The notes beneath the pieces were generated by a model. It saw only the letters and a list, made by a program, of their open reading frames with translations. It had not been told where the DNA came from and did no database searches. From Patescibacteria group bacterium (GTDB lineage Bacteria > Patescibacteriota > Minisyncoccia > Phycocordibacterales > Phycocordibacteraceae): 36,177 nt of DNA. The position numbers were made by a program, and so were the translations under genes. The stretch is from contig JAIETW010000001.1 in NCBI GenBank assembly GCA_019744845.1, positions 243,999-280,175 of the forward strand. Direction: 5' to 3'. Position 1 is the first letter of the stretch. Each line of letters starts with the position of its first letter. This document shows, piece after piece, positions 3,209 to 28,323 of the stretch.

Positions 3209-3652
3209 CTATACGCTCGTCTTTGAAAGACCGTGCGGGAGTGGACAGGTTCCCACCGCTGCCTTTTGTGCGCCGTACACGGACACATAGAGAAGACCCG
3301 CGATGATCTGGAGACAGCTGAAGAAGGTCATCATCTGCATTTGATCACTTAGATCACGGCCAAAGAACACCGCAATGAGTGCCGTGAACACAATCAGTAC
3401 CGCAGCAGCCGTACGCGAGTTGTACCCGACGATAAGTGCGATACCCGCACCGACTTCAACAATGAAAGCGAGGGTCACTGCGATCATCGCAAACGGAATG
3501 CCGACCGCAGCAGACATCTCTACCTGTCCTGCAAATGTTTCCGTGCCTGGGATTTTGTAGAAGGCGCTGTACAGAAAGAGCGCACCGAAGAGCACGCGCG
3601 CGACAACGGGAGCCCACTGTTCATACGGACGGGTAAGATGTGGAAGGGTCAT
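3209..3652 (-). CDS. DoxX family membrane protein
   Basis: 147 aa, about 4 TM segments, pattern ARVLFGALFLYSAFYK...EVGAGIALIVGYNSRTAA. Confidence 0.85.
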   Translation of the reverse strand: MTLPHLTRPYEQWAPVVARVLFGALFLYSAFYKIPGTETFAGQVEMSAAVGIPFAMIAVTLAFIVEVGAGIALIVGYNSRTAAAVLIVFTALIAVFFGRDLSDQMQMMTFFSCLQIIAGLLYVSVYGAQKAAVGTCPLPHGLSKTSV

Positions 3653-3732: not shown

Positions 3733-5229
3733 ATGTTGTATTTCACCATTTTCTCAACCAACGCTGCGATTCTCATATTTGAAATTGCCGGTGCACATCT
3801 TCTTGCCCCCTATCTCGGCACCTCGGTAGAGGTGTGGTCTGGCACTATTGCGGTCATTTTGGGTGGTATGGCTATCGGGTATTGGGTGGCAGGTATCATT
3901 GCCGATCAGCGCTCATCGCGCGCCATGCTTTCACTCTTGATGTGCGCGAGTGGTCTTGCCGCACTACTTGCCTGGAGCACACGTGATCTTATCCCCTCCC
4001 TTTTTGCGACTTCGTTCAGTCTCCCTCTTACGTTTACTGCAATGGCGACCGCAGCCCTGCTGTTTCTCCCGACGACTATTCTTCTTGCCTCTATCTCACC
4101 CTTCGTCGCAAAAGCACTTATTGTGCATCTTGAGTCATCTGGCCGAGTCGTAGGTCGTTTGAATGCGATAGGAACACTCGGAAGTATTACGGGTGCAGTG
4201 ATTACCAGCACCTTCCTTATTCCTTCTTTTGGGGTCGGTGCCATCTTTCTTTGTATTGCACTATTTTTGCTCGCTCTTTCGTTTGTCCTTGGAGTGAGTC
4301 ACCTCAAAATGAAACTAGCCGCACTGGTGATCGTAAGTGCGATCTCATTCAGTTTGTACTACGGACCTACGCATACACAGGACGCAATTGCTGATATCTC
4401 TACCACCTATAACCGGATCTGGATTGTAGAAGATGAATACAGAGGAGAGATGCTGCGTATGCTTAAAACAGATCCCTTCGGCATACAGTGCGCAATGCTT
4501 CTTCTTCCCGACGGTACAGTGGATGAAACCACCCTCTCTTTTAACTACCTCCGAGGGTTTGAGGCAGTCGCACGCGAAGTCGCTCCACAGGAAGAGGTAA
4601 ACGCACTTTTTCTTGGAGGATGTAACTACTCACATCCCCGTGCCTTCTTATCCGCTCGTCCTGACGCGCGCGCGACCGTAGTGGAGATTGATCCCGGCAT
4701 GACCGAAGTTGCGGAAACCTATTTTGGATTTGTGCCCGAGAACTTCCCTTCTCTTTCCATTGCACACGCAGACGCACGCAGATTTCTTGTAGAACACGAA
4801 CAAGACTACGATCTTATTTTCATGGATGTGTTTAACGCCTCTTCAAACACCCCCTACCATCTCACTACCACTGAGATGTTTACCCTTCTGTCGGAGCGCG
4901 TGACACCAGAAGGAGTGGTGATGGTGAATCTCATAAGTCCGCTTGAAGGAGGGGCGGGCGCCTTTGCCTCCTCCATGCTTGCCACCGCACGCACTGCATT
5001 CCCTTATGTGGAACTTTACGCACAAGACAATACTGCCCTGTCTCAAACACAAAATGTACTCTTGGTCGGAAGCACCGTCCCTCTCGCAGAAAGATACGGC
5101 TCAACACGCGTAGATGGCGTTCGTCTCTCTCGTGTTGATGACGCTCTTTTGCCTCCGTCTATTATCTTGAATGATGATTTTGCACCCGTAGAATTCCTTA
5201 CTCGTCAGATTCGTGGATCGTCATTGTGA
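3733..5229 (+). CDS. Fused membrane domain + spermidine-synthase-like (class I SAM-dependent) protein
   Basis: N-terminal multi-TM region (FEIAGAHLLAPYLGTSVEVWS, GRLNAIGTLGSITG) and C-terminal VVEIDP, ADARRFL, YDLIFMDVF, LNDDFAPVE motifs. The start could alternatively be 3682. Confidence 0.85.
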   Translation: MLYFTIFSTNAAILIFEIAGAHLLAPYLGTSVEVWSGTIAVILGGMAIGYWVAGIIADQRSSRAMLSLLMCASGLAALLAWSTRDLIPSLFATSFSLPLTFTAMATAALLFLPTTILLASISPFVAKALIVHLESSGRVVGRLNAIGTLGSITGAVITSTFLIPSFGVGAIFLCIALFLLALSFVLGVSHLKMKLAALVIVSAISFSLYYGPTHTQDAIADISTTYNRIWIVEDEYRGEMLRMLKTDPFGIQCAMLLLPDGTVDETTLSFNYLRGFEAVAREVAPQEEVNALFLGGCNYSHPRAFLSARPDARATVVEIDPGMTEVAETYFGFVPENFPSLSIAHADARRFLVEHEQDYDLIFMDVFNASSNTPYHLTTTEMFTLLSERVTPEGVVMVNLISPLEGGAGAFASSMLATARTAFPYVELYAQDNTALSQTQNVLLVGSTVPLAERYGSTRVDGVRLSRVDDALLPPSIILNDDFAPVEFLTRQIRGSSL

Positions 5230-14936: not shown

Positions 14937-15424
14937 AAAAGCGCTCTTTCTTCCAGAAGCTCACCGGTGGCGTTCCTCTGAACGACGATTTTGACGATTT
15001 TGAGGAAGAACAGGATCCCGCCCCACGTCCAGGGCTTCCAGGACGCGAGCAGGCAGCACAGCGCGTGATGTCCTACCACGAAGAAGAGCCTACCGAAGGT
15101 CAGCTCCCTATTGATATGTATCAGACGCAGGATGAGATCATCATCCGCACCTTTATCGCTGGCGTACGTCCTGATGAAATGAATGTCTCCATTAGCCGCG
15201 ACATGGTGGTGATTGAAGGATCACGTCAGGAGCGTGAGCAGGTCACCGATGGCGACTACTTTAGCCGTGAACTCTTCTGGGGATCATTCACACGAACCAT
15301 TCTTCTTCCCGAAGAAGTAGACGTAGATACCTGTACCGCAACGGCAAAGGATGGTCTTTTGACCCTCGTGCTTCCAAAGCTTGATAAGGCACGTCAGACC
15401 AAGCTTAAGGTTCGCGTAGGCTAA
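14933..15424 (+). CDS. Hsp20/alpha-crystallin small heat shock protein
   Basis: GQLPIDMYQT, ELFWGSFTRTILLP, AKDGLLTLVLPK; ATGA overlap with the prsW-like stop. Confidence 0.93.
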   Translation: MKKRSFFQKLTGGVPLNDDFDDFEEEQDPAPRPGLPGREQAAQRVMSYHEEEPTEGQLPIDMYQTQDEIIIRTFIAGVRPDEMNVSISRDMVVIEGSRQEREQVTDGDYFSRELFWGSFTRTILLPEEVDVDTCTATAKDGLLTLVLPKLDKARQTKLKVRVG

Positions 15425-16518
15425 AGCACTTTTGTCTCAAGTGGTGGCGGTGTATTCACCTGCATCACCGTAAATCCGATTCGCCCGATGGTCTGCCCAC
15501 CGGGCGTTTCTACAGACACTCTCCACTTCCCAGTAACAAGATTTGATTTCCAGGAGTAGCCACGGTATCCGCCTTCTCGTCCTCCCGTCATCGGGAATGA
15601 GACATTACTTTCAGTAATCCAGCGGCGAGACGTTGGATTGTAATATTCCCATCGGTGCACGATCGCACCTCCACGAAGATTGCCTGGTGCGGCAACCGCA
15701 CTATATGCATACAACGTTTCTCCTGGTGTGGTCTCTATGGTTTCTTCAAAGACCCACCATGGCTCAGGTGCCTCGTCAGTGACTCTGTAGCCGTTCCCTT
15801 CACGTACGAGTGAGTGATAGATGCCTGCGTCTTTAAGCGCGAGCGGAATAGGAGGAATGAGGCCCGCAAAATAGGAAACATTAACCACCAAAAGCACTGC
15901 GGCAGTGGTGATCATCACGCTTCGTACTTCTCCTCGAAAGCGTGCGGGATTGAATACCGAAAGAACCCACAAGAAAAGAGCGAACACCCCTACTGCAATT
16001 CCGGTACTTCCAAGAAACGACCACGGACCTATGAAACCAGTGTAGAACGGGAAGGCGAACACTGCGTAGGCGTACAGCGCAAAGAAAAGTAGGGTCGTCT
16101 GGAAGATAAGAAAGTGCTTATACATGCGAAAGTATTCATTCCCTGCATAGATAAGTCCGAGAATAATAAGGAAAGGCCATGAGACGAGAATGACAGAATG
16201 TGTTGCATAGAACACGGTGAATCCAGAGAAGAGGCCTCCGAATGCATACTGCACTGCAAGCGGGAAAAGTACCGAGAGTGCTTTCTTCCATCTGATCTCT
16301 GAGTCATGACAGGAGGCCGTCGCGTGCGCACCAAGCACCGACACGACGGCGAGTGTGAGATACCCTGCAAATACGAGTACTACTATTGAGAGTGGCAAAA
16401 GCCCAAAGGTAAGAAAGTCAGTGACGAATCCGAACGCGAAAAGGACCGCGCCTAGTTTGCGTTCATTTCTCGCTGCAAATGAAAGTATCCTATCGAAGAG
16501 GTTCATCGATGGACTCAT
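15421..16518 (-). CDS. DUF2914-like membrane protein
   Basis: Multi-TM N-terminus plus C-terminal HRW...GGREGGYRGYS.K...GKWRVSVET..G..IGR..F. Start is 16518 or 16506. Confidence 0.8.
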   Translation of the reverse strand: MSPSMNLFDRILSFAARNERKLGAVLFAFGFVTDFLTFGLLPLSIVVLVFAGYLTLAVVSVLGAHATASCHDSEIRWKKALSVLFPLAVQYAFGGLFSGFTVFYATHSVILVSWPFLIILGLIYAGNEYFRMYKHFLIFQTTLLFFALYAYAVFAFPFYTGFIGPWSFLGSTGIAVGVFALFLWVLSVFNPARFRGEVRSVMITTAAVLLVVNVSYFAGLIPPIPLALKDAGIYHSLVREGNGYRVTDEAPEPWWVFEETIETTPGETLYAYSAVAAPGNLRGGAIVHRWEYYNPTSRRWITESNVSFPMTGGREGGYRGYSWKSNLVTGKWRVSVETPGGQTIGRIGFTVMQVNTPPPLETKVL

Positions 16519-16519
16519 G

Positions 16520-16592
16520 TGCTTGGACCCGGGCTCGAACCGGGGACCCCTTCCTCTTCAGGGAAGTGCTCTACCAACTGAGCTATCCAAGC
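16520..16592 (-). tRNA. tRNA-Phe(GAA), CCA not encoded
   Basis: gcttgga-tagctcagttggtagagc-cttcc CTGAAGA ggaag-ggttcgagcc-tccaagc A. Confidence 0.95.
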
Positions 16593-16634
16593 AGGTACGG
16601 GGTACTGTACCTTAAAACCCCGTCTCCGTGAAGT

Positions 16635-16907
16635 CTACATTCCGAACTGTTCCCGGTACTGCTCAAAGAGGCGCTGGAAGTCCTCAGGACGCATTTCTGC
16701 GGCTCCGGTAAACATGTTCAAGAGCGGTGCAAGATACGTCATCGTGATGTAATAGCCACCTGCAAAGATGACGAGCCAGATAACTATACGGATGACACCA
16801 TGAATAAATGCGTCCCGACGCATCGCCTTAAGTATCTTGTTGTTCTCGCGTGTGAGACGAAGAGTCTCCTTTGCCATCTCACCAATTGATTCTGTTTCTT
16901 CGTACAT
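16635..16907 (-). CDS. Small hypothetical membrane protein (coiled coil + TM)
   Basis: MYEETESIGEMAKETLRLTRENNKILKAMRR followed by a TM segment; TATACT 7 nt before ATG 16907. Confidence 0.75.
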   Translation of the reverse strand: MYEETESIGEMAKETLRLTRENNKILKAMRRDAFIHGVIRIVIWLVIFAGGYYITMTYLAPLLNMFTGAAEMRPEDFQRLFEQYREQFGM

Positions 16908-16932
16908 AGCCAAAAGTATAGCACTCCACTAG

Positions 16933-17004
16933 TGCCACCAGTAGGAATCGAACCTACATCTAGGGCTTAGGAGTCCCTTGTTCTATCCATTGAACTATGG
17001 CGGC
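16933..17004 (-). tRNA. tRNA-Arg(CCT), CCA not encoded
   Basis: gccgcca-tagttcaatggatagaac-aggga CTCCTAA gccct-ggttcgattcc-tggtggc A. Confidence 0.95.
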
Positions 17005-17664
17005 TTATGAGGATACTACCCTTTCACGACAATCTTTTCCAATAAGGGAGATTATTGATTGGATAAGAAGTCTGTCTCGTATTCCTGAAATCACTCGCAC
17101 CCTGCACATACCATACGGTAGTTTCCCCTTCTTCTTTCCTTCAATGATCTCTACTCTTTTGATTGATTTAAGAGGCATCCCAATTGTACGAGCCCAGTAA
17201 ACTTTCGCTGGCGTCACCGCGACATCGGTGTGGGTTCTAATAGAAATAGAGAGGCGTTCTTTTGAGATACCTATTGCCCTCAGAGAACATATGAAAGTCT
17301 GAATGAGTGCCGGATCAGAATTGATAATGGAGAAATCACGTTTTGTACCTTCCCCCCAATACAGTGCGACGAGTAAAAGCAAAAGATCTCGTTTTGAAAT
17401 AGCCCCTACTAATGCACGAGCTTCATTTGTTATGTGTTCTCTGAGGGCGGCGGCTCTTTGTTTTGATCCTCCTTGTTTTTGTTTCAATGCCTCTCTAAAT
17501 TTCTCAGGCACTACTACACTTTTAATATGACGTTGCACTGTTGTCTTAGCAATTCCAGTTTCGCGAGAGATTTCTGGAATACTCTTCCCATTCATTCGTA
17601 AATTTACCAGTTGCCTATGAATAGATTGAGGCAATTTGTTCATGTATATGAATATAGCACTCAT
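17005..17664 (-). CDS. HTH + LAGLIDADG/DOD homing-endonuclease-like protein
   Basis: N-terminal HTH (GKSIPEISRETGIAKTTVQRHI), LLVALYWGEG (LAGLIDADG-helix-like), INSDP..I..F, YW, PYGMCRVRV. Lys/Arg-rich, in AT-rich DNA. The start may be 17643. Confidence 0.65.
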   Translation of the reverse strand: MSAIFIYMNKLPQSIHRQLVNLRMNGKSIPEISRETGIAKTTVQRHIKSVVVPEKFREALKQKQGGSKQRAAALREHITNEARALVGAISKRDLLLLLVALYWGEGTKRDFSIINSDPALIQTFICSLRAIGISKERLSISIRTHTDVAVTPAKVYWARTIGMPLKSIKRVEIIEGKKKGKLPYGMCRVRVISGIRDRLLIQSIISLIGKDCRERVVSS

Positions 17665-17701
17665 ATACTAGGAATCTTTTGATTTATCCACTAAATATAT
17701 A

Positions 17702-17740
17702 AAGAAGCCCCACGATGTTTAATCATGGGGGTTTCTTTTG
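17702..17740 (-). terminator. Intrinsic terminator-like hairpin downstream of glutaredoxin
   Basis: aagaagcccca..gat / atc..tgggggtttctt inverted repeat with A/T-rich flanks. Confidence 0.65.
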
Positions 17741-17752
17741 TAAGGAGTGGTT

Positions 17753-18007
17753 TTACATTCCTGGCTCGCCTCCGGTGCCAAAGAGCTCGTCAAAGCGACG
17801 CTTGTCAAAGCCGATGATCATTTCATCACCGACAAAGATGACTGGTACACCCATCTGACCGCTCTTCTCAATCATCTCGGCACGCTTCTCCTGATCTGCA
17901 GCCACGTTGATGTCCGTGTACTCAATACCGTTGGCATTGAAGTACTCCTTACTCATCTGGCAGAAGTGACAGGTTGGCGTGCTGTAAATGGTTACTTTCT
18001 TATCCAT
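17753..18007 (-). CDS. Glutaredoxin-like (NrdH/YruB-type) redoxin
   Basis: YSTPTCHFC (CxxC), SGQMGVPVI, IGFD. Confidence 0.93.
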   Translation of the reverse strand: MDKKVTIYSTPTCHFCQMSKEYFNANGIEYTDINVAADQEKRAEMIEKSGQMGVPVIFVGDEMIIGFDKRRFDELFGTGGEPGM

Positions 18008-18048
18008 AGTGATATTTCGTTATGTCTCCGAGAGTATATCACCCCCAG

Positions 18049-18057
18049 TTATCCACA
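18049..18057. promoter_or_regulatory. Perfect DnaA-box consensus TTATCCACA, 10 nt upstream of the glutaredoxin -10 (TATACT, 18033-18038, minus strand)
   Basis: Exact match to TTATNCACA; function is inferred only. Confidence 0.4.
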
Positions 18058-18058
18058 G

Positions 18059-18724
18059 CTATGGGGACGGGTTACCGGGCACCGAAAACCAGACAAACGT
18101 CTCATTGGGACCCTCTTCGGTACCGCTCACAGTAAAACCTGCCTCAACCAGACGTGCTAATCGCTTCTGGCGATCTTTTACATTGTGATCATAAAACCCC
18201 ACCACAAGTGCTCCTCCAGGACTTACGCGTGAATAGAGGTCCTTCACAAATTCAATCTCTTTTGATTTCTCTAGTTTCAAATGATCCCATGCGTTCCAGT
18301 ACACGACATCAAATGTCTTCTGAAGGCTCTCCAGATCCTCTACGGAATGTACGAAGTGTGATTCTTTTCCTGGAAAGAGTTTTTGAGCATCACGTACTCG
18401 TTCTTTTCTCTTATCAAGACCGTACGGTTCTATCGTATGTGTAGACCATTCCTGGAGTGAGCGTAGTAAAAGACCGTTCGCACTTCCATAATCAAGTACG
18501 GAAACAGTCGCCTTGTCTCCTGCAATACGATCAATAATTCCTGCAATTGGTTTCCTTCCCTTCTCCCACCATGCCCACAACTTTTCTGCAGAATCTCGCC
18601 AACTGGTAACGATCTCACTCCCCTTCAATATACGTTGAAGTTTTGCACGATTCGTACGTATATCGTCAAACGTTTCGTCTCGCGACGAGGGACCTCCTTG
18701 ATAAGGAAATTCATTGAGCTTCAT
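18059..18724 (-). CDS. Class I SAM-dependent methyltransferase-like protein
   Basis: Motif I-like VLDYGSANG, YGLD, FDVVYWN, VSPGGALVV. The only Met is the first, and it overlaps the tRNA-Gly CCA. Confidence 0.75.
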   Translation of the reverse strand: MKLNEFPYQGGPSSRDETFDDIRTNRAKLQRILKGSEIVTSWRDSAEKLWAWWEKGRKPIAGIIDRIAGDKATVSVLDYGSANGLLLRSLQEWSTHTIEPYGLDKRKERVRDAQKLFPGKESHFVHSVEDLESLQKTFDVVYWNAWDHLKLEKSKEIEFVKDLYSRVSPGGALVVGFYDHNVKDRQKRLARLVEAGFTVSGTEEGPNETFVWFSVPGNPSP

Positions 18725-18797
18725 GGTGCGGGATACGAGAATCGAACTCGTGCTTATTGCTTGGGAAGCAATCGTCCTGCCACTAAACTAATCCCGC
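18724..18797 (-). tRNA. tRNA-Gly(CCC), CCA encoded
   Basis: gcgggat-tagtttagtggcaggac-attgc TTCCCAA gcaat-agttcgattct-atcccgc ACCA. Confidence 0.95.
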
Positions 18798-19151
18798 TCA
18801 TAGACCGAACCAACCGAACACCTTCCTCCACCACGGAAGCGGAGGACCAGCCTCTGACTGGTCTTCAACGACGATAATAACCTCTTCCCCGGGACGTGCA
18901 ACGCCATGCGCCTCCCTGAGTGTTGCTTCCTCCCCACGAGGCGTATTCAGCTCTGCAATGTTCTCAGTCAAGATCTCTTTCCGCTCTGTCAGGGATGCAA
19001 GCTCTGCCTGTGCCTCCATCGCCGCATGTCGTGCACGCTCTTCTTTCTGCATAATTCCCCACAACAACCAGAGAAGCCAAATAAGCACGAGTGCAAGAAG
19101 CGCGATAATCGCTGCTTCACGAAACCTGAGTTTCTCCTTGCGGCGGGCCAT
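18798..19151 (-). CDS. Septum formation initiator family protein (FtsB/DivIC-like)
   Basis: Basic N-terminus, single TM, coiled coil, then E...RE..G..RPGEEVIIV. Confidence 0.82.
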   Translation of the reverse strand: MARRKEKLRFREAAIIALLALVLIWLLWLLWGIMQKEERARHAAMEAQAELASLTERKEILTENIAELNTPRGEEATLREAHGVARPGEEVIIVVEDQSEAGPPLPWWRKVFGWFGL

Positions 19152-19169
19152 TACGGCCAGTATACCAAC

Positions 19170-20969
19170 CTATCGCTCGCTCTCCTGTACCATTTTCATG
19201 AACACCTCTTCAGGGATCTCAACGCGCGCACTGTAGGCGGCACGATGCTTCTTACCTTTCTTCTGTTTCTCCAACAGCTTCTTCTTACGTGTTACGTCAC
19301 CTCCATAGAGATATCCGGTCACGTCTTTACGAAGTGCAGAAAGGGTCTTCGAAGAGATAATACGTCCAAGGGCATGAGCCTGGATCTTTGTGACCTGGAG
19401 CTGACGCGGAAGAATCTCATAGAGCTTCTCTACCATACGCTCCCCCTCTTCCTGCACACGACGACGAGACACCACACGTGCAAAGGCAGGCACCTCTTCT
19501 TCCGCGACCAGAATATCTAGACGCACCACATCTGCAATACGTTCATCAAGGAATTCATAGGAAAGCGATGCGTACCCGGACGATGCGTTCTTCACGCGGT
19601 CGAAGAACCCACGCATAAGCTCACGGAGTGGCATCTCCGCCGTAAGCTCAATACGACCATCAGAATACGTTTCCGTATGCTGAATCACTCCTTCGTGATC
19701 ATGGAAAAGCTGCAGAAGATTAGAAAGAGACTCTGGAGGTGTAATGAGAATGGCTTTCACCCATGGCTCTTCAATCATTTCTATATCTCCATAGGCAGGA
19801 AACTTGGATGGCGTGTATACGGTCTGACGTCCGCCAGCCTTCGTTGTCACGATGTACGCGATGGTAGGAATGGTAACGACAAGAGACAGAGAGAATTCGC
19901 GACGAAGACGTTCGGTCACAATCTCTAGGTGAAGCATTCCAAGAAACCCACAACGGAATCCGCGACCAAGCACACCTGAAGACTCTTCTTCAAAGGACAG
20001 TGAGGAGTCCGAAAGACGAAGCCGCTCCAGTGACTGACGGAGGTCAGCAAGGTCGTCCTGACTTTCTGGATACACAGATGCCCATACCACCGGACGAGGA
20101 CGCGCGAATCCTGGAAGTGCTGGAAGTGTGCCACGTTCAAGTGCAATTGTGTCTCCCACCGCCACCACTCCCGGTTCCTTAATACCGGTGACAATGTACC
20201 CAATCTCTCCGGCAGAGAGAGAATCTGCCGGTGTCTCATCAGGAATAAAGATTCCTGTTTCAAGCGCAGTGAACTTTTTGTCCGCTGCACGGAAGGTAAG
20301 CAAGTCTCCCTTCTTCACTGCCCCATCAAACACACGCACGTACACCGCGATACCGCGATGCGTGGAGAATGAAAAATCAAAGATAGTCGCACGTGCTTCG
20401 TTAGCTTCTGAAGGCCTAGGCGCAGGAACGCGCGCGATAATCGCCTCAAGAAGTTCTTCTACTCCTGCCCCACTCTTTCCTGAGACCGCAAGCACCGAGT
20501 CCGGATCTACGGACAGAAGTGACGCAAGCTCAAGCTTTATTTCTTCCACGCGTGCGTACGGAGAATCAATCTTTGATACTGCAGGAATGATCACACAACC
20601 TGCCTTCTGAGCCATACCAAGCGTGGTGAGCGTCTGCGCCTGCACGCCCTGGGTAGAATCCACGAGAAGAATCACTCCTTCCACCGCGGTAAGTGCACGG
20701 GATACCTCGTATGCAAAATCTATGTGCCCTGGAGTATCAATAAGGTTAAGTACGTAGTCCACTCCATCTTTTGCACGATAATTCATGCGTGCAGGCTGCA
20801 TCTTAATAGTGATGCCGCGCTCCCGCTCAAGATCCATACGATCAAGAACCTGGTCCCGCATCTTACGAGCCTCAATGGTATGGGTACGCTCAAGCATCCG
20901 GTCAGCCAAGGTGGACTTCCCGTGATCTATGTGGGCAATAATGGAAAAGTTACGAATCGGTGCGGTCAT
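19170..20969 (-). CDS. lepA: Elongation factor 4 (LepA)
   Basis: IRNFSIIAHIDHGKSTLADR, ERERGITIK, DTPGH, GFRCGFLGMLHLEI, YGGDVTRKKKLLEKQK. Confidence 0.97.
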   Translation of the reverse strand: MTAPIRNFSIIAHIDHGKSTLADRMLERTHTIEARKMRDQVLDRMDLERERGITIKMQPARMNYRAKDGVDYVLNLIDTPGHIDFAYEVSRALTAVEGVILLVDSTQGVQAQTLTTLGMAQKAGCVIIPAVSKIDSPYARVEEIKLELASLLSVDPDSVLAVSGKSGAGVEELLEAIIARVPAPRPSEANEARATIFDFSFSTHRGIAVYVRVFDGAVKKGDLLTFRAADKKFTALETGIFIPDETPADSLSAGEIGYIVTGIKEPGVVAVGDTIALERGTLPALPGFARPRPVVWASVYPESQDDLADLRQSLERLRLSDSSLSFEEESSGVLGRGFRCGFLGMLHLEIVTERLRREFSLSLVVTIPTIAYIVTTKAGGRQTVYTPSKFPAYGDIEMIEEPWVKAILITPPESLSNLLQLFHDHEGVIQHTETYSDGRIELTAEMPLRELMRGFFDRVKNASSGYASLSYEFLDERIADVVRLDILVAEEEVPAFARVVSRRRVQEEGERMVEKLYEILPRQLQVTKIQAHALGRIISSKTLSALRKDVTGYLYGGDVTRKKKLLEKQKKGKKHRAAYSARVEIPEEVFMKMVQESER

Positions 20970-22629
20970 TGAAAGTAGGGTTGTAGATCGGGGTCTTTGG
21001 GAGCGCAAAACGCTTCAGGGACGAACGTATGTCCTTGAATTCCTTGTTCTCTAGGAGGAAGAGCACTCCCGCAGCCGCTACGACTCCTACGATACCAGCC
21101 GTGAGCCCTTGCGCAAGCACGGAGGCCAAGGTGGAGAGTGGCGCGATGTTCCCCATGAGTGCAAGGGTCCAGTATGCTACCGTACCTCCCACAATCGCGG
21201 CCCCCGTACCTTCCATGATGGGGCGCACCAGTGACCCAGCTACTCCCGGCGCTACGGTGCGAAGCGTGAGAAGTGCCACGATCCCCATAAGGATGTACCC
21301 AAGCATGGCGCCAAAGGCAATGAAAAGAATGTCAGAGCCCTGCACTCCTTCTACACGCATAAGTGCTTCCATGAAGTCACGGGCAAACGGATAGGTCCGT
21401 GCGAGTGCGAGTGTGCCTGCGGCACCACCCACCGATGCAAGGAGGCCAAGAATCTGTATAAGAAATGGCATCCACGAACGACCCGCAGCATAGAAGGCAC
21501 GCGCGGAAAGCAACACAAGACCTTGCGGGACGAGCGCAAACGCAAGAATACCAAGCACTGCCGCAGTGAGGCGCGTATCGTCCCAGTCAAACGCACCAGT
21601 ACCAAGTACCACACGCACAATATGTGCGCGCATCACAATGGTGAGAATGGCAAGAATCGCGGACCAGAAAATAAGATGGCGCGCCGCAGCGGCAAGTGTC
21701 GCCGCAAACGCTTCCATGTGCCCTTCATTCATTTCTTTTGCGAGTACGGGGAATGCGGCAGTGGCATAGGACGCCGCAATCAAGGAAAGTGGCACGGCGG
21801 CAAGATTTCCCGCAAGCGCAAAGACCGCAATGCCTCCTGCGCCCGTAACTGCCGCAAGCATCGTAAGAAGGAAGAGGGTTGCGGCACCCATAGAGAGCGC
21901 AAGTGAGCGCGGCACCGATTCCTTAATCACGCTCACAAGGACTTTCGGTGACGGAACCACGAATGACGGGAATACGCCTGCGCCTGCAACGACGGGAATG
22001 TTAATCAACAAGTGCGCGATGCTTCCAAGAATCACCCCCACCCCAATCCCCGAGAGACCCATCGAGGGATACAAGAAGAGTGCGCCCACAATAATACCGA
22101 TGTTGTAGAGAATTGGAGAGAGTGCAAACAGCAAGAAACGACGGTTCACCTGCGTCACGCTTGCAAGCACACCAGACAATCCAAGAAGGATCGGCTGAAT
22201 GAGAAGCAGTCGCGCAAGCAATATAAATTCATCCGCGCGTGGTGAGTCCACAAAGTTCGGGAAGAGTGCAAAGAGCATCTGTGGCATCAGCCACGCAAGC
22301 ACTGCACAAATAATGCCGCCTCCTATAAACAGGAATGACGCAGCCTGTGAGAGCAGTTTCTGCACTTCTTCTTTCCGCACTCCTGCAATCCGTGGAATAA
22401 GCACATACGCAGAGACAAGTGAGGCGACGAGCGCAAATACGAGGTCAGGAATCTTGAACGCAGCGTAGTAGAGGTCAAGCGTCTCCCCTGCACCAAAGGC
22501 TCCCGCAAAGATGCGATCCCGAAGAAGCGCAAGAAGTTGCGAGGCAAAGGTCAGAGCTGCCAAGAGATACGCAGCCTGATGAAGACCGCGTATCGGCGCC
22601 GTGAGAGTTCCAAAGAGGCGCGTAACCAT
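20950..22629 (-). CDS. murJ: Lipid II flippase MurJ (MviN)
   Basis: SQLLALLRDRIFA..FGAG..LD.YYAAFKIPD, P.LYN.GII, RAFYA; many TM segments. Confidence 0.9.
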   Translation of the reverse strand: MVTRLFGTLTAPIRGLHQAAYLLAALTFASQLLALLRDRIFAGAFGAGETLDLYYAAFKIPDLVFALVASLVSAYVLIPRIAGVRKEEVQKLLSQAASFLFIGGGIICAVLAWLMPQMLFALFPNFVDSPRADEFILLARLLLIQPILLGLSGVLASVTQVNRRFLLFALSPILYNIGIIVGALFLYPSMGLSGIGVGVILGSIAHLLINIPVVAGAGVFPSFVVPSPKVLVSVIKESVPRSLALSMGAATLFLLTMLAAVTGAGGIAVFALAGNLAAVPLSLIAASYATAAFPVLAKEMNEGHMEAFAATLAAAARHLIFWSAILAILTIVMRAHIVRVVLGTGAFDWDDTRLTAAVLGILAFALVPQGLVLLSARAFYAAGRSWMPFLIQILGLLASVGGAAGTLALARTYPFARDFMEALMRVEGVQGSDILFIAFGAMLGYILMGIVALLTLRTVAPGVAGSLVRPIMEGTGAAIVGGTVAYWTLALMGNIAPLSTLASVLAQGLTAGIVGVVAAAGVLFLLENKEFKDIRSSLKRFALPKTPIYNPTFNDRTDS

Positions 22630-22638
22630 TGTGTCTCC

Positions 22639-24996
22639 CTACGGCGTAGGCGTTACTCCCGCAGGGGTCGGCTCATCCACTGGAGCGTACGGAATACCGA
22701 AGGCAGCCACGCGTGCGCTTGGGAATGGATTGGTGCCTGCATCAAGCGCGGCAATATCTGCAGCAACCGCTATCGCATTGTCTTCAGAGAATCCTGCAAC
22801 CACGCGGAGCTGCTCTGCTGCGCGAGGATACTCACCTGAAAGGGCGTACATCATTCCAAGGTAGAAGTGTGCGTTTGCGAACTGTGGGTTAAGCGCGACC
22901 GCACGTGTAAGAGCCTCTATTGCTCCTGCCGTGTTCCCTCCTGCATAACGAAGAAGGCCAGTCTGGAGCAATACTCCCGGATCATTTGGTGCGAAGTATG
23001 CAGCAGCTTCTGCGGCCTGGAGCGCTTCGGCGGTTTTACCCGAGGTCACCGCAAGACGTGCGTAGAGGAGAATTGCTTCTGTGTAATCACGCTTGAGGTT
23101 AATTGCCTCAATAAGAAGTGTTTCAGCGGCTGCATTGTTTCCTCGCGTAATCTCAAGCTGTGCCATTACAAAGCGAAGTGCCGGATTGGTCGGCGCAAGT
23201 TCTGCTGCCCGAGTGTATGCCCCCACTGCTTCTTCGTATGCACCCTGCACACCAAGCGGTACCAAACTCCCATAGATATTTCCTAGGAGTGCCCAGTTCT
23301 GGTAGTTCTGGGGATCAATCTTTGCCGCCTCAAGTCCTGCCACAATCGCACTCCCTGCTGCTGCACGAACGCGCTCCTGCATAACGGCTGGTGCAAGCGT
23401 GGTGTCCGCTGCGGCACGGTTCATCTGTGCAAGTGCAATAAGTGAAGTCAGACGGAAGGTCTCATCACGTGGCGCGAGATTTATGGATGCCGTGACTGCC
23501 TCAGCGGCTTTTTCTACGTTCCCAGATCCAAGAGCAGTAGACGCCTGCTGGGCAAGCACACGAGCCGCATATCGTTCAATGACTGCGTATCCTGCCGCAA
23601 TGGAGATGATGAGGAGGAGTGTGAGGAGGAACACGATTCCAAATCCAAGACGTGGATTCTCTGCAAACACAAACACTCGCTTGTGCTCCCCTTCAAGCGA
23701 CGCGATGAAGAGGCCGAGAAGAATGAATCCAACTGCCATAGTGACCGGTCCCGGGAGCGCGAACACCATAAGAAGGAGTACATAGAGTGCGCCAAAGAAA
23801 GATCCCATCATCACAAGACGACCCCAACGATCTTCTGGCAGACGAGCAATGAGTCCACGAACTCCAAAGAAGAGCAGGACGGCGAAAAAGCCCAGCCATG
23901 CAAGCACACCGAGAATGCCAGTGGTGACAAATGACGTTGGCACATGTCCTACCCCTGAACCGAAGTCCACTGCCCAGAAGATGCTGTCGTTAATAGAGCG
24001 ATCGTGATGACGTACCCATTCCTCAAGGAATGAGTTTGGTCCTGTACCGAATATCGGAGACACTGCATAGGTGTGGGTACCAATACCGAAGGTAGCCTGC
24101 CAGGATGGACGTGCATCTATATAGGTAGTGCCAAAGAGGTTCGCGATACTTCCTCCAATCGTGGTACCCCCAAGTACAAACAGAAGCCCGAGCACCAGCG
24201 TGATAAGTGGAAGCACCAAAGGACGAGAGTGTGGTTCCGCTACCGCAACTGAACGATTGCGGTACATCACTGACTCTACGAAGAGCCCAAGCGCAACGAG
24301 AGACACCAAGATCCATACGATCATTGAGTTCACGAGTGTAAGCGCAAAGAGAGAAATCACGACTGCGACTGTGAACTGCATGCGGCGTGCACCTCCGAGC
24401 ATGCGAATTGCAAGAAGACCAAAAATCGCGATAAGGCCTACAAAGGCGCCCATATCAATGAAGGAGCCAATGAAGTTTGAGGTAGGAGACACCGTTGCAG
24501 GAGAGAGAGACCCCACAAGCACAAAGATCACTTCAGACACGAGAACAAGAAGGAACGAGACACCGAGACCTGACAAAAAGAGGCGTTGGGCACGGACAGT
24601 GCGGAGGATAAATGCAGCAAGGGTTGCAAGCAGCGAGAGGACGAGGAAGAGACCAAGGGTGTCGGAGGAGAACCCGTTTCCATAGACTGCCGCATCAAAT
24701 CCAACTCCAGAGAAGAGTGTGGAAAGTGCATAGGCAATCGGCACCAGCCAAAGTGCACCCAAAAGTGGCAAATGAGGCACTGGAACACCGCCGCGCTTAA
24801 GAGATGCAAGTGCAAACACCACGAGCGTGATGAGTGCACCCACCGCAAGTACTACCGTCTTGGTCTGATAAAACGGTATTGAAGAAACGGGAATCGCGAT
24901 AAGTACGGCGATCACCGTCGTGATCGTAAGTGCCCACACCGCAAGTGCTTCAAGTGAGAAGCGGCGCACGCTCGTCGTTGTTGAAATATCCTCCAT
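22639..24996 (-). CDS. Polytopic membrane protein (O-antigen-ligase-like region) with C-terminal TPR repeats
   Basis: About 12 TM segments, loop motif PIFGTGPNSF, TPR patterns (AYTRAAELAPTN, ALTRAVALNPQFANAHFYLG). Confidence 0.75.
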   Translation of the reverse strand: MEDISTTTSVRRFSLEALAVWALTITTVIAVLIAIPVSSIPFYQTKTVVLAVGALITLVVFALASLKRGGVPVPHLPLLGALWLVPIAYALSTLFSGVGFDAAVYGNGFSSDTLGLFLVLSLLATLAAFILRTVRAQRLFLSGLGVSFLLVLVSEVIFVLVGSLSPATVSPTSNFIGSFIDMGAFVGLIAIFGLLAIRMLGGARRMQFTVAVVISLFALTLVNSMIVWILVSLVALGLFVESVMYRNRSVAVAEPHSRPLVLPLITLVLGLLFVLGGTTIGGSIANLFGTTYIDARPSWQATFGIGTHTYAVSPIFGTGPNSFLEEWVRHHDRSINDSIFWAVDFGSGVGHVPTSFVTTGILGVLAWLGFFAVLLFFGVRGLIARLPEDRWGRLVMMGSFFGALYVLLLMVFALPGPVTMAVGFILLGLFIASLEGEHKRVFVFAENPRLGFGIVFLLTLLLIISIAAGYAVIERYAARVLAQQASTALGSGNVEKAAEAVTASINLAPRDETFRLTSLIALAQMNRAAADTTLAPAVMQERVRAAAGSAIVAGLEAAKIDPQNYQNWALLGNIYGSLVPLGVQGAYEEAVGAYTRAAELAPTNPALRFVMAQLEITRGNNAAAETLLIEAINLKRDYTEAILLYARLAVTSGKTAEALQAAEAAAYFAPNDPGVLLQTGLLRYAGGNTAGAIEALTRAVALNPQFANAHFYLGMMYALSGEYPRAAEQLRVVAGFSEDNAIAVAADIAALDAGTNPFPSARVAAFGIPYAPVDEPTPAGVTPTP

Positions 24997-25075
24997 ATAT
25001 ATGTCCCCTATGCCCGTACTAATCTTCTCAGTATACCCTCTTGCGAGGGGTGTATTTATGAAAAACCGTGGATAG

Positions 25076-25104
25076 GAAAAGCCCGCCGGTTAGGGCGGGC
25101 TCTC
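25076..25104 (-). terminator. Intrinsic terminator downstream of rnpB
   Basis: Minus strand gcccgcc-ctaacc-ggcgggc followed by TTTT. Confidence 0.75.
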
Positions 25105-25114
25105 CATGTGTGTC

Positions 25115-25434
25115 GACCGATACGATAAGCCGAATTCTGTCATGCATTGCTGCACGGACGATTATCTATCTGGGAATGACATTACTGTCACCCTCAAGCG
25201 GCGCTCTCCGGTAAAGGAGCACGGCCTTGCACAGAAGTAAGGATTTGGCCGTTTCATCTTCATCTCTCAATGAAGTTCATCCCGAAGGATGTCATTGGCT
25301 TTCGCCTCCGACGTCACTGTTCGCACCTCGCGCCTCGCGGCGGACGGGCGTTACCCGCTACCATCCTGCAGAATAATCTGCCTGTGTTCGGACTTTCCTC
25401 TCTTATTGCTAAGAGCAATCGTCTGTATCGGTCC
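25115..25434 (-). ncRNA. rnpB: RNase P RNA
   Basis: Minus strand has GAGGAAAGTCCGAAC and ACAGAATTCGGCTTAT (P4 halves), P1 gaccgatac/gtatcggtc and GATGAAACGG; TATAAT lies about 7 nt upstream. Confidence 0.95.
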
Positions 25435-25452
25435 GTCTATTATTATACCACA

Positions 25453-25914
25453 CTAACGAGGAATCGGAAGAACCGTGCCAACTTCCCACCCCTTACGTCT
25501 TGCCTCTCCTGCTTTGGTTTCAAGTACATACGGAATAGGTACGGGAGGATAGAACGCAGTTGGATACGTGTCCGGTGTGACTGAGTCTTCTATTCCGACA
25601 ATGGTGCCATCTTCAGCAATCCAAATGATGTCTATGGAGATTCGCATGTCTTTCATCCAAAACCCATAGCTTCCTGGTTCAGGAAAAATAAAGAACATGC
25701 CGTAGTTCTCTTCTATATCAGTACGAAAAGAGAGTCCTTTGGTACGACTATCAGGCGTATCGGCGAATTCTATATAAAACGGCTCTTCCTCTATCGTAAC
25801 GGTGGTATCAAACGTGTCTGGTGTCTCGGAGTTCATCCACCAATACGTAATACCGCCTGCAGCGAGTACAAGAATGACAAGAAGAATGTTCCGGATCACG
25901 GCAAGAGTGCGCAC
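25453..25914 (-). CDS. DUF192 family protein
   Basis: N-terminal TM, ADT..R.KGLSFR, GMFFIF, FWMKDMRISIDIIWI, YVLE..AG. Confidence 0.9.
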   Translation of the reverse strand: MRTLAVIRNILLVILVLAAGGITYWWMNSETPDTFDTTVTIEEEPFYIEFADTPDSRTKGLSFRTDIEENYGMFFIFPEPGSYGFWMKDMRISIDIIWIAEDGTIVGIEDSVTPDTYPTAFYPPVPIPYVLETKAGEARRKGWEVGTVLPIPR

Positions 25915-26363
25915 ATGAGCGCGGCTGTTGCGGCCTCTACGCCTTTATTATGCTTCCCCGTTGAACGTACGCGCGCCTGGGTAAGAGAGTTCGGCGTAAT
26001 CACCCCGAATGCAATGGGCACCTTGTAGTTGATCGTGAGAGTCGTAATACCCGCAGCAACCGCATTGGAAATGTAGCGATCGTGTTCCGTTTCTCCTTTG
26101 ATGACACAACCAAGCGCAATGATCGCATCAGGTTTTTTCTTTCCTGAGAGAAGTTTTATGCAACCAAATGGAATCTCAAAACTCCCTGGCACATGGATCA
26201 CTCGTATATTCTTTTCCTTTACTCCCCACTGTTTCAGTGTGGTTTGTGCGCCTGTCAAAAGACGCTCCGTCACATCACTATTAAAATCTGAGACGACAAT
26301 TCCGACGGAAAGACGTGATGCATCTTGAGTCTTAACCGTTTTTTCGTAGTGGCTTCGCTGCAT
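25896..26363 (-). CDS. ribH: 6,7-dimethyl-8-ribityllumazine synthase
   Basis: IVVSDFN, VPGSFEIP, ALGCVIKGETEH, PIAFGVIT, NKGVEAA. Confidence 0.95.
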   Translation of the reverse strand: MQRSHYEKTVKTQDASRLSVGIVVSDFNSDVTERLLTGAQTTLKQWGVKEKNIRVIHVPGSFEIPFGCIKLLSGKKKPDAIIALGCVIKGETEHDRYISNAVAAGITTLTINYKVPIAFGVITPNSLTQARVRSTGKHNKGVEAATAALMCALLP

Positions 26364-26949
26364 ATGCGGTAACTCTAGCATGGCCTCTATGGCGGGCCAT
26401 GATGTCGGTTTCTACGTTTACCATATCTCCTACCGTAAGGTTGGTAAGTGTCGTGTGCGCAAGGGTGTGCGGCACGAGCGCCACGGTCACCCAGGGGCCA
26501 TGACGCTTGGCAACCGTAAGCGACACTCCATCAAGCGCTATGGAGCCTCTAGAGATTGCGTAGCGCGCAAGACCCGCAGGAAGCTTGAGGGTGAGCAGTG
26601 TAGAGCGTCCTTCTCTTTTCTTCTCTCCAACCCTTGCCACTCCTTCAACATGTCCCATGACGAGATGCCCGTCCATACGATCACCAAATTGGAGCGAGCG
26701 CTCAAGGTTTACCTCATCTCCTTTTTGTATATTCCCTACCGTAGTGACGCGGAGAGTCTCCGGCATATATTCAACGACTACGCTGGTACTGGTAGAACGA
26801 ACGACCGTAGAGCAGACACCGGACACATTGATGCTTTGCCCGTTCTTCAATTTCCACGACGCAGGCTTTGAGAATGTGACGGTGCGTACCGCTCCCTTTT
26901 TCTCTACCCGAGTGATCTTCCCTTTCTTCTCTATAATTCCAGTAAACAT
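26332..26949 (-). CDS. ribE: Riboflavin synthase (alpha chain)
   Basis: MFTGIIE N-terminal signature, GVCSTV, VNLERS, GHLVMGHVEG, GSIALDGVSLTV, VNVETD. Confidence 0.95.
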   Translation of the reverse strand: MFTGIIEKKGKITRVEKKGAVRTVTFSKPASWKLKNGQSINVSGVCSTVVRSTSTSVVVEYMPETLRVTTVGNIQKGDEVNLERSLQFGDRMDGHLVMGHVEGVARVGEKKREGRSTLLTLKLPAGLARYAISRGSIALDGVSLTVAKRHGPWVTVALVPHTLAHTTLTNLTVGDMVNVETDIMARHRGHARVTAYAAKPLRKNG

Positions 26950-26953
26950 GAGT

Positions 26954-27289
26954 TTAGGAGAGTATGTCTTGTGCACGCACCGCATCACTATGCATCGCCT
27001 CCTTCAATTGTTCATCGTTTTCAAATCGCGCAGTTTCCCGAATCTTTTCTACTAAGATGATGCGGATGTCTTTCCCATAGAGATCCCCAGAAAAGTCAAA
27101 GAGGTGTGCTTCTAGAATGTGGCGCTCGGGATCTGCAAACGCGACTGCGGCGTACATGGTGTCATCAAGTACTACATGTGCAGCATAGATACCCGACACA
27201 CTGGTATCCGTAAGGGGAATGTTCGCGGTTGGGTACCCAAGCGCGTGCGCTTTTGCACTTCCTCCCGCAACAATGCCGTGAAATTCCAT
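26954..27289 (-). CDS. Stand-alone riboflavin kinase (RibF C-terminal domain only)
   Basis: MEFHGIVAGG....ALGYPTANI, GIYAA, EAHLFDFSGDLYG, KIRE..RF. The ORF-track extension to 27346 lies inside tRNA-Ser. Confidence 0.9.
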   Translation of the reverse strand: MEFHGIVAGGSAKAHALGYPTANIPLTDTSVSGIYAAHVVLDDTMYAAVAFADPERHILEAHLFDFSGDLYGKDIRIILVEKIRETARFENDEQLKEAMHSDAVRAQDILS

Positions 27290-27378
27290 GGCGGAGGCGG
27301 AGAGATTCGAACTCTCGAGACCCTTTCGAGCCTGCCACCTTTCCAAGGTGGTGCACTAGACCACTATGCGACGCCTCC
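27289..27378 (-). tRNA. tRNA-Ser(GGA), long variable arm, CCA encoded
   Basis: ggaggcg-tcgcatagtggtctagtgc-ccacc TTGGAAA ggtgg-variable arm-agttcgaatct-cgcctcc GCCA. Confidence 0.96.
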
Positions 27379-27387
27379 GTGAGGCTG

Positions 27388-28293
27388 TTATACCACTTCT
27401 TCCGCCTTGCTACCAAGAAGGCGCTTCACGCGATCCTCTACCGGTGGATGGGTCGCAAAGAGCTTGTTCACGAACTTCCCTGCCTCTGCGCCAAAGGGAT
27501 TTGCAATGAACAAGTGCGCAGTCGCGTGACTGGCCTTACGCATTGGTGCGGCGTATCCACTGATCTTTCGGAGTGCACTGGCGAGTCCTTCTGGATAACG
27601 AGTGAGAAGTGCGCCTGACGCGTCCGCAAGATATTCACGACGACGAGAGATCGCAAGTTGAATAAGCTGCGCAGCGATAGGGGCAAGGATGATGGCAATC
27701 ACTGCAAGCACCGCCATGATCGCGCCTCCCTTTCCACTGTCCCGATCATTCCCACCCATAAGCGACATACGAAGGAACATGTCTGCGACAATAGCGATCA
27801 CTCCCGCAAGCACCACCGCAACCGTCATGACCAGCATGTCTTTGTTTTTGATGTGAGAGAGCTCGTGTGCGATCACTCCCTCAAGCTCTGCACGATCAAG
27901 CATTGCAAGAAGTCCGGTCGTGGCTGCCACCACCGCATGCTTCTCATCACGTCCGGTCGCAAACGCATTTGGCGCAGGATCATTCACCACGTAGAGTTTT
28001 GGCATTGGCATGCCGTTTGCGATAGAGAGATTTTCCGTGATGGTGTAAAGATCAAAGTACTCTTCACGAGACGCAGGCTTTGCGCCCGTCATAGAAAGCA
28101 CAATCTTGTCGGAGAACCAATAACTTCCCACGTTCATGAGAAGGGAGAAAATCACTGCCCCATAGAGAATGCTTACGTCTCCGTAATACCAGGAGAGCGC
28201 CCATCCGATTGCAATAACCACGAGCAAGAACCCGAGCATGAGGCCCCAGGTTCTCAGTACATTATTTGATCGTTCTTGATATAAGTTTGCCAT
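27388..28293 (-). CDS. htpX: M48 zinc metalloprotease HtpX
   Basis: PNAFATGR, AHELSHIKNKD, AISRRREYLADA, ATHPPVEDRV. Confidence 0.95.
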   Translation of the reverse strand: MANLYQERSNNVLRTWGLMLGFLLVVIAIGWALSWYYGDVSILYGAVIFSLLMNVGSYWFSDKIVLSMTGAKPASREEYFDLYTITENLSIANGMPMPKLYVVNDPAPNAFATGRDEKHAVVAATTGLLAMLDRAELEGVIAHELSHIKNKDMLVMTVAVVLAGVIAIVADMFLRMSLMGGNDRDSGKGGAIMAVLAVIAIILAPIAAQLIQLAISRRREYLADASGALLTRYPEGLASALRKISGYAAPMRKASHATAHLFIANPFGAEAGKFVNKLFATHPPVEDRVKRLLGSKAEEVV

Positions 28294-28323
28294 AGATAAC
28301 CGCTAGTATACCAAAATCTATTT

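Follow-up and report, generated by a model that had tools for sequence, protein, structure and literature searches.

How can a gene begin when the first letter of its start codon is also the last letter of a transfer RNA (tRNA)? The question is raised by a stretch of 36,177 nucleotides (nt) from a Patescibacteria group bacterium (GenBank assembly GCA_019744845.1, contig JAIETW010000001.1, positions 243,999–280,175; hereafter the window, with its first letter as position 1), in which tRNA genes on the minus strand lie flush with stop codons upstream and overlap or touch start codons downstream. The original prediction had proposed that, as in mitochondria, tRNA excision could define the ends of messenger RNAs (mRNAs) here. 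Our results give about an even chance to the reading that these junctions are tRNA–mRNA co-transcription units in which excision would set near-leaderless mRNA ends, in a bacterium without Shine–Dalgarno (SD) initiation. The source genome (760 kb in 8 contigs, 99% complete) has 41 predicted tRNAs. ARAGORN calls five tRNAs in the window, of which the four in the studied range are on the minus strand, with limits that agree with Rfam; protein domains of the open reading frames (ORFs) were named with Pfam.

All junctions that had been pointed out are present in the sequence at their coordinates, and Rfam confirms the tRNA limits. The central case is tRNA-Gly(ccc) (18724–18797, minus strand, as are all features described below), which encodes its CCA end, has a stop codon as its 5′ flank and overlaps a start codon with its 3′ end. 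Upstream, the TGA (18800–18798) of an FtsB/DivIC-like coding sequence (CDS; 117 aa, 18798–19151) is flush with the tRNA +1 position (TGA/GCGGGA at 18798/18797). Downstream, the sole ATG of a class I S-adenosylmethionine (SAM) methyltransferase CDS (221 aa, 18059–18724) shares A18724 with the CCA end (...GCACCA/TG AAG). The same overlap occurs at tRNA-Ser(gga) (27289–27378, encoded CCA, ending ...CCGCCA), where A27289 also belongs to the ATG of a riboflavin kinase CDS (111 aa, 26954–27289; ...CCGCCA/TG GAA TTT), the first gene of a rib cluster. At tRNA-Phe(gaa) (16519–16592, the sole Phe tRNA), the discriminator A16520 and C74 (16519) are directly followed by the ATG of a DUF2914 membrane protein CDS (365 aa, 15421–16518), so that positions 16520–16516 read ...AAGCA-C-ATG. 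The junction at 18724 is crossed without differences by contigs of a second sample from the same study and by contigs from a different study; it is not an assembly artefact.

In the genome-wide table, the distance from the ARAGORN end to a same-strand start is −1 nt for tRNA-Gly and tRNA-Ser, 0 nt for tRNA-Phe and +2 nt for tRNA-Trp. The last is a near-flush fourth case outside the window (discriminator G, CTG-ATG, then isochorismatase), with an ambiguous start (a second ATG follows 21 nt further on). A candidate start lies 12–96 nt downstream of 15 further tRNAs, with a −10 box at the right distance in 9 (strict) or 11 (lenient) of these 15. Two of the nearer starts, after tRNA-Val(tac) (+14) and tRNA-Ala(ggc) (+16), were left uncounted as uncertain starts without a Pfam family; the Val case has a GTG with its own TACACT box 36 nt further on.

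Are the overlapped ATGs used at all? The simplest way to deprive the junctions of meaning is chance or annotation artefact: the ATGs would be unused, with true starts downstream at TTG or GTG, or the ORFs would be silent passengers, including islands integrated at tRNA 3′ ends. The bare letters agree with this view, since two CCATG among the 16 CCA-encoding tRNA genes of the source genome is chance level (binomial p = 0.26), and both overlapped genes are accessory: riboflavin kinase was found in 2 of 40 other genomes, and a methyltransferase orthologue in none of 60 genus genomes, where only two weak domain matches appeared (E 1e-4 and 9e-4). The protein N-termini speak against it. As had been claimed, the Met of riboflavin kinase sits where the family N-terminus is expected (Pfam Flavokinase spans residues 2–110, profile positions 6–124 of 124), and the homologues in the two other genomes start at the same residue (MNTYHG... 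and MEKTISG...). The methyltransferase ORF indeed has no Met besides M1, which is aligned in all four homologues, with residues 7–36 conserved; its database homologues, three in number (BLASTP identities of 76, 54 and 52%), align from M1 and are conserved from position 7 on. The ORF, moreover, has stayed intact at 47–76% identity in the same context.

A wider test comes from the order to which the source genome belongs (251 genomes, source genome included). The pattern of a T-loop followed by CCATG has 79 matches in 64 of these genomes; among the 77 matches outside the source genome, 54 are tRNA ends, 52 of them with enough flank. At these 52 tRNA-confirmed junctions, the ATG frame runs on for 100 codons or more in 20, against 1 and 0 in the other two frames (p = 4e-9), and Pfam domains begin near residue 1 in 15 of the 20 long ORFs. 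These 15 include RluA-type synthases after tRNA-Val(tac) in two genera, TsaD, MiaA, RF2, a tRNA-binding protein, DedA-type proteins and methyltransferases. One unpublished genome in the sample has no match for the CCATG, 0–6-nt or CACCTCC patterns and one match for the 16S motif described below. Judged from homologue N-termini and from this frame test on relatives, the overlapped ATGs are the true gene starts, and we consider chance or artefact highly improbable. Tabulating tRNA–CDS distances thus divides the matter: the CCATG letters of the source genome are no more frequent than chance, but the real starts and their conservation exceed it. An integrated island at the tRNA 3′ ends was rejected, as a search of the 36-kb window with the last 22 nt of each of the four tRNAs, allowing up to 3 mismatches, gave no further copy; no search for an integrase was made.

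Genes for tRNA- or rRNA-modifying enzymes recur at or beside tRNA 3′ ends in the order (five loci), namely the RluA type, TsaD, and MiaA after tRNA-Leu(caa) in two genera.

Starts at 0–6 nt after CCA are also found in the order: 25 of 30 loci sampled from 179 matches were tRNA-confirmed, and 8 of these 25 open long ORFs, so that per-offset figures are rough. In a sample of 251 genomes of the phylum, 255 CCATG matches were found, of which 70 were examined; the ATG frame is open in 4 of 66 junctions, and the other frames in 1 and 3. Per junction, the order thus exceeds the phylum (20/52 vs 4/66, Fisher p = 2e-5), with a phylum denominator that is inflated by CCATG...CATGG hairpins. At 11 loci of other Patescibacteria, the encoded CCA often begins such a hairpin directly after the tRNA; it may serve as a terminator, or pair with the CCA end as a signal for processing.

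We then asked what else could start these genes. A −10 box was scored as present at ≥ 4.5, the level of real promoters in this genome. The promoter logo is an extended −10 (tgGTAtacT) without a −35 element, and a box at or above the cut-off ends 5–12 nt before +1 in 30 of the 41 tRNAs, with three more at 16–17 nt and eight without any. A usable −10 box is missing from all three abutted genes. The tRNA 3′ halves score at most −0.4 before riboflavin kinase, 0.9 before the methyltransferase and −5.2 before DUF2914, at wrong distances, so the three lack the box ending 5–9 nt before the start that marks primary leaderless genes. Nor do they have the SD-bearing spacer of a classical tRNA–mRNA operon, as their spacers measure −1 to +1 nt. 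The statement that no promoter or ribosome-binding site fits between tRNA and CDS therefore holds, the more so as the 16S rRNA lacks an anti-SD (see below). A 5′ end next to the AUG of these genes would thus have to come from processing.

Upstream, tRNA-Gly(ccc) itself has no −10 box (best score −1.5), and the FtsB-like gene has a strong extended −10 (ttggTATACT, 19168–19159) ending 7 nt before its ATG, which together point to a single unit of promoter, FtsB-like CDS, tRNA-Gly and methyltransferase. tRNA-Phe has its own promoter (aaggTACAGT, 16613–16604). For tRNA-Ser there is only a weak −10-like TATAAC (27392–27387; score 4.6, gap 8), which overlaps the TAA of the upstream M48 (HtpX-like) peptidase gene (27388–28293, ending 9 nt before the tRNA), itself preceded by a strong promoter at 28314–28305. 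We consider co-transcription of tRNA and CDS very likely, given how the junctions are built, that the starts are real, that no other initiation signal is present and that a promoter-less tRNA is conserved within an mRNA unit.

Promoters inside the tRNA genes would offer another source of 5′ ends: GAATCT- or GATTCT-like hexamers of the T-loop could give primary transcripts with short leaders. Hexamers of the A2/T6 type do lie in the T-arm 13–15 nt before the ATG. In addition, in two related genomes (L092, ∼3570–3583; L093, ∼4252–4265) the CACCAT at the end of tRNA-Arg(cct) precedes the ATG of a histidine-phosphatase-like gene by exactly 6 nt, and this 3′ end could serve there as a weak −10 box from which a leaderless transcript would start. 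We nevertheless regard this explanation as very unlikely for the window. The two overlapping cases score far below the cut-off with the wrong spacing for a start at the AUG, tRNA-Phe has nothing comparable, and the same T-loop letters occur in most tRNAs, so that every tRNA gene would fire.

The flush TAA (17007–17005) of a helix–turn–helix (HTH) protein CDS (219 aa, 17005–17664) before tRNA-Arg(cct) (16932–17004, encoding C74 only; TAA/GCCGCC at 17005/17004) has a different setting. The −10 box of this tRNA (TAGTAT, 17018–17013) falls within the final codons of the HTH gene, and the ORF after the tRNA has its own promoter (gtgcTATACT, 16924–16915). The −10 boxes of several tRNA genes in the source genome (including tRNA-Thr(tgt), His, Ala(ggc) and those at 27387–27392 and 17013–17018 of the window) overlap or sit inside the last codons of the upstream CDS, and at some of them the TAnnnT hexamer opens with the upstream TAA or TAG stop.

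How, then, would ribosomes find an AUG that has no SD? The 16S rRNA of the source genome ends in ...GGAACATATCCAAT, without the CCUCC anti-SD (contig C2:25616–25666, outside the window). Within the order, a conserved 16S 3′ motif was found in 182 of 251 genomes, with CACCTCC in its normal place in only 2 of the 182, and all 12 tails that were read lack CCUCC; in the phylum sample, CACCTCC is kept in 114 of 251 genomes. Loss of CCUCC from the 16S 3′ tail has already been published for some candidate-phyla bacteria, including Candidatus Wolfebacteria and Campbellbacteria (PMC10783764). SD-like words are not enriched before 767 ORFs of the source genome. Instead, TAnnnT starts at −12, −13, −14 and −15 from the ATG in 110, 69, 43 and 58 of these ORFs, against a background of ∼10. 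If the box sets the transcription start site (TSS), the classes at −13 to −15 imply that leaders of 1–3 nt are tolerated.

By a rough classing of 786 ORFs, 306 (∼39%) are of the leaderless type (extended −10 box 5–9 nt before the start), 183 are coupled (start within −8 to +10 nt of an upstream stop), ∼108 may have longer leaders and 189 are unclear. The leaderless pattern noticed in the window is thus borne out genome-wide by the −10 spacing before ORFs.

Coupling, as the second main mode of this genome, suggests termination–reinitiation across the folded tRNA, in which the closed acceptor stem would bring the FtsB-like stop near the methyltransferase AUG and a terminating ribosome would restart there. 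The fact that both tRNA-Gly junctions are flush and conserved in four of four lineages would suit it. Given the established footprint size, however, the 5′ half of the tRNA must already be unwound by the time a ribosome reaches the stop. Reinitiation also gives no account of tRNA-Phe and tRNA-Ser, which lie 42 and 9 nt from the stop upstream of them, or of tRNA-Trp, which has no CDS upstream, and we know of no precedent for reinitiation across a folded tRNA. We hold this explanation to be improbable in the extreme, on a level with chance.

Conservation was followed in three related genomes (L091, L092 and L093) whose LepA is 90–98% identical. The succession of stop codon, tRNA-Gly(ccc) and CCATG-methyltransferase is present in identical form in all three, with TGA or TAA as the stop and methyltransferases 47–76% identical. 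The A-C-ATG junction of tRNA-Phe and DUF2914 is kept in L091, and the flush TAA before tRNA-Arg with its embedded TAGTAT occurs also in L093. More widely, the FtsB-like stop lies −1 to +7 nt from the +1 of tRNA-Gly(ccc) in 18 of 24 loci (genus and relatives), and at one of them (L134) it shares its last G with the tRNA. Across the genus loci, no −10 box precedes tRNA-Gly(ccc), whereas tRNA-Gly(tcc) and (gcc) score 7.9–9.8 in 10 of 13 loci. In most genus members a promoter and a glutaredoxin gene follow 25–40 nt after tRNA-Gly(ccc), which indicates that the methyltransferase is an insertion in one sub-lineage. In one further genome (G008), a different ORF of 299 aa begins at its own CCATG of tRNA-Gly(ccc). 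The overlap of tRNA-Ser and riboflavin kinase turned out to be a single-lineage event and was rejected as a conserved feature: in the two genomes that have the kinase, no tRNA is nearby and the gene has its own −10 box 6 nt upstream.

We next considered how the tRNA could be cut out. The source genome contains RNase P RNA, the RnpA protein, a CCA-adding enzyme, an RNB exonuclease, RNase Y, RNase J and a 467-aa beta-CASP nuclease. RNase P would be the expected enzyme for the tRNA 5′ cuts. No other promoter match in the region is as good as that of its class A RNA gene (25110–25434), gtggTATAAT (25442–25451; score 11.7). The gene lies directly after the rib cluster that follows tRNA-Ser, and a terminator hairpin lies 3′ of it. 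RNase PH/PNPase and RNase E/G domains were not found in the source genome, and RNase Z above the cut-off was found in none of 81 order genomes, the source genome included. Of the enzymes that had been named for a check, RNase J and the CCA-adding enzyme are therefore present and RNase Z and RNase PH are missing from the finds, and the proposed cut after the discriminator by RNase Z is left without an enzyme to support it in the source genome and the 80 others. A beta-CASP metallo-beta-lactamase (MBL) nuclease of ∼455–490 aa, similar to archaeal aCPSF1 and Cas14-type MBL-CASP proteins, is present in addition to RNase J in many order genomes.

The tRNA 3′ ends themselves provide a hint. C74 is encoded by 39 of 40 tRNA genes in the source genome (16 with CCA, 1 with CC and 22 with C alone, the last followed by A or T and never by G) and by 41 of 45 non-CCA tRNA genes at other loci. 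This near-universal C74 suggests that, in an order whose 81 searched genomes gave no RNase Z, 3′ maturation includes a step by which C74 is left in place or required, and hints at a cut inside or beside CCA. In Propionibacterium acnes, which also lacks tRNase Z, RNA-seq cuts fall between the two Cs of CCA, and repair by a nucleotidyltransferase has been proposed (PMC3848588).

Relying on these findings, a processing route can be outlined for the even-chance reading given at the outset, of which the step that creates a translated 5′ end is one we infer from the mitochondrial analogy and from the leaderless habit of this genome. Transcription would start at an extended −10 upstream: (i) at the near-leaderless promoter of the FtsB-like gene for the tRNA-Gly(ccc) unit; (ii) at the tRNA's own promoter for the tRNA-Phe unit; and (iii) at the weak own promoter or that of the peptidase gene for the tRNA-Ser unit. 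It would continue through the tRNA into the next CDS. RNase P would cut at tRNA +1, leaving an upstream mRNA that ends at its stop codon, and an endonuclease other than RNase Z would cut at or inside CCA, most simply after C74, with the tRNA completed by the CCA-adding enzyme. The downstream mRNA would then begin 0–2 nt before its AUG: a cut after C74 would give 5′-AUG for DUF2914 and 5′-CAUG for the methyltransferase and riboflavin kinase, for which CCAUG is also possible. Such a released form would be the one in which this organism translates its many leaderless mRNAs.

A stronger version extends this to the whole order, without anti-SD and RNase Z: a nuclease would cut inside CCA (after C74 or C75), CCA would be repaired and the other product would be a ready leaderless mRNA, which would make excision an obligatory switch and the system an independently evolved bacterial punctuation. 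We offer this version tentatively and consider it clearly less probable than the local reading; one enzyme that might make the CCA cut is the order-wide beta-CASP protein of ∼460 aa.

Mere compaction is a serious rival, even if we rate it as rather unlikely. In this explanation, deletions removed the spacers, and the CDS is translated from an uncut or otherwise cut precursor by an SD-free initiation that does not depend on the 5′ end, with tRNA maturation unrelated or competing. Several observations favour it, weigh against excision-made mRNA ends, or do both. Among promoter-less same-strand CDS pairs, 159 of 357 start −4 to +6 nt from the upstream stop; deletion-biased compaction piles starts against any upstream feature, so the flush state and its persistence are by themselves no proof of selection. 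Long ORFs also start 0–6 nt after CCA (the 8 of 25 confirmed junctions above). The ∼108 possibly leadered ORFs, which have no SD, imply that internal SD-free initiation probably exists in this organism. In L092 and L093, tRNA-Phe and DUF2914 are separated by a promoter-less 10-nt spacer, which would not be leaderless after a cut at the tRNA. The same tRNA-Ser end with CCATG opens ORFs of only 8–16 codons in three other genomes.

Overlaps occur, too, in relatives that bear an anti-SD: three of the four long-ORF cases of the phylum sample are from genomes with a normal one. Per genome, the frequency is ∼0.08 in the order and ∼0.03–0.06 in the rest of the phylum, a difference of at most about twofold. 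Canonical RNase Z was not found in the 81 genomes and the candidate 3′ nuclease is only putative; with RNase R as the main 3′ exonuclease, exonucleolytic maturation could destroy the downstream mRNA.

Three points argue against compaction alone. From general knowledge of 30S binding, an AUG that touches a folded tRNA acceptor stem leaves no single-stranded landing site upstream, and no ribosome would arrive from upstream. tRNA-Phe and tRNA-Trp are the sole isoacceptors, so that their precursors must be cut at that place anyway. Finally, 20 long ORFs in the order start at −1, against an extrapolated ∼7 per offset for 0–6, a figure that is rough as noted above.

If excision does set these ends, a 5′ end made by processing and not by transcription initiation would serve bacterial ribosomes as a start signal, and one precursor would give both a tRNA and a translatable message, mechanically linking tRNA maturation to the expression of the gene next to it. 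We would also learn how initiation works in very small genomes after SD loss and how tRNA 3′ ends mature without RNase Z. This reading predicts monophosphate 5′ ends at the three junctions named above. If only compaction is at work, the junctions would represent the tightest tRNA–CDS packing that is still compatible with expression of both. In searches of open-access papers, we found no description of CCA/start-codon overlaps or of tRNA punctuation in bacteria and, among the papers listed, no pairing of 'leaderless' with 'Patescibacteria'.

Several known systems resemble parts of this arrangement. The closest in form is the tRNA punctuation of mitochondria, reportedly described by Ojala, Montoya and Attardi in 1981. 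Shared features are tRNAs butted against CDS, upstream mRNAs that end at the stop and downstream mRNAs that begin at or next to the AUG (predicted here), the lack of SD and the presence of RNase P. The proposed likeness to mitochondria is further supported by the flush junctions and by the promoter-less tRNA-Gly(ccc) inside a probable mRNA unit. It does not extend to the 3′ nuclease, which is not RNase Z/ELAC2 here, nor to a general rule: only 3–4 of 41 tRNAs abut a start, most tRNAs have their own promoters (the 30 of 41 above) and the majority of ORFs either have a leaderless-type promoter of their own or are coupled. Moreover, CCA is encoded and overlaps the AUG here, whereas mitochondrial tRNA genes do not encode it, and the cleavages are in our case predicted from the DNA sequence.

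Bacterial tRNA–mRNA co-transcripts are the second relative, such as thrU-tyrU-glyT-thrT-tufB of Escherichia coli, which is said to be one. Another is secG-leuU (PMC2241853). With these the junctions share a single transcript (inferred here) and separation by RNase P plus other nucleases; unlike the junctions, they keep SD-bearing spacers, in place of −1 to +1 nt and no anti-SD.

Propionibacterium acnes is similar in combining the lack of tRNase Z with many leaderless mRNAs; its endonucleolytic cuts fall between C74 and C75, with CCA-adding repair proposed, and were not connected with a downstream CDS in that work (PMC3848588). Its enzyme set includes RNase PH, RNase D and an RNase E homologue. 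In the source genome, searches for RNase PH and RNase E/G gave nothing, and RNase D was not among the enzymes searched for. The primary leaderless mRNAs of Deinococcus (PMC4007540) and mycobacteria (PMC4633059) likewise have an AUG at or a few nt from the 5′ end (predicted here) and no SD; their 5′ ends are TSSs set by a −10 box 6–7 nt upstream, which the three abutted genes lack. The SD-scarce candidate-phyla bacteria share the 16S tail without anti-SD, and tRNA junctions and promoters lie outside the scope of that paper (PMC10783764).

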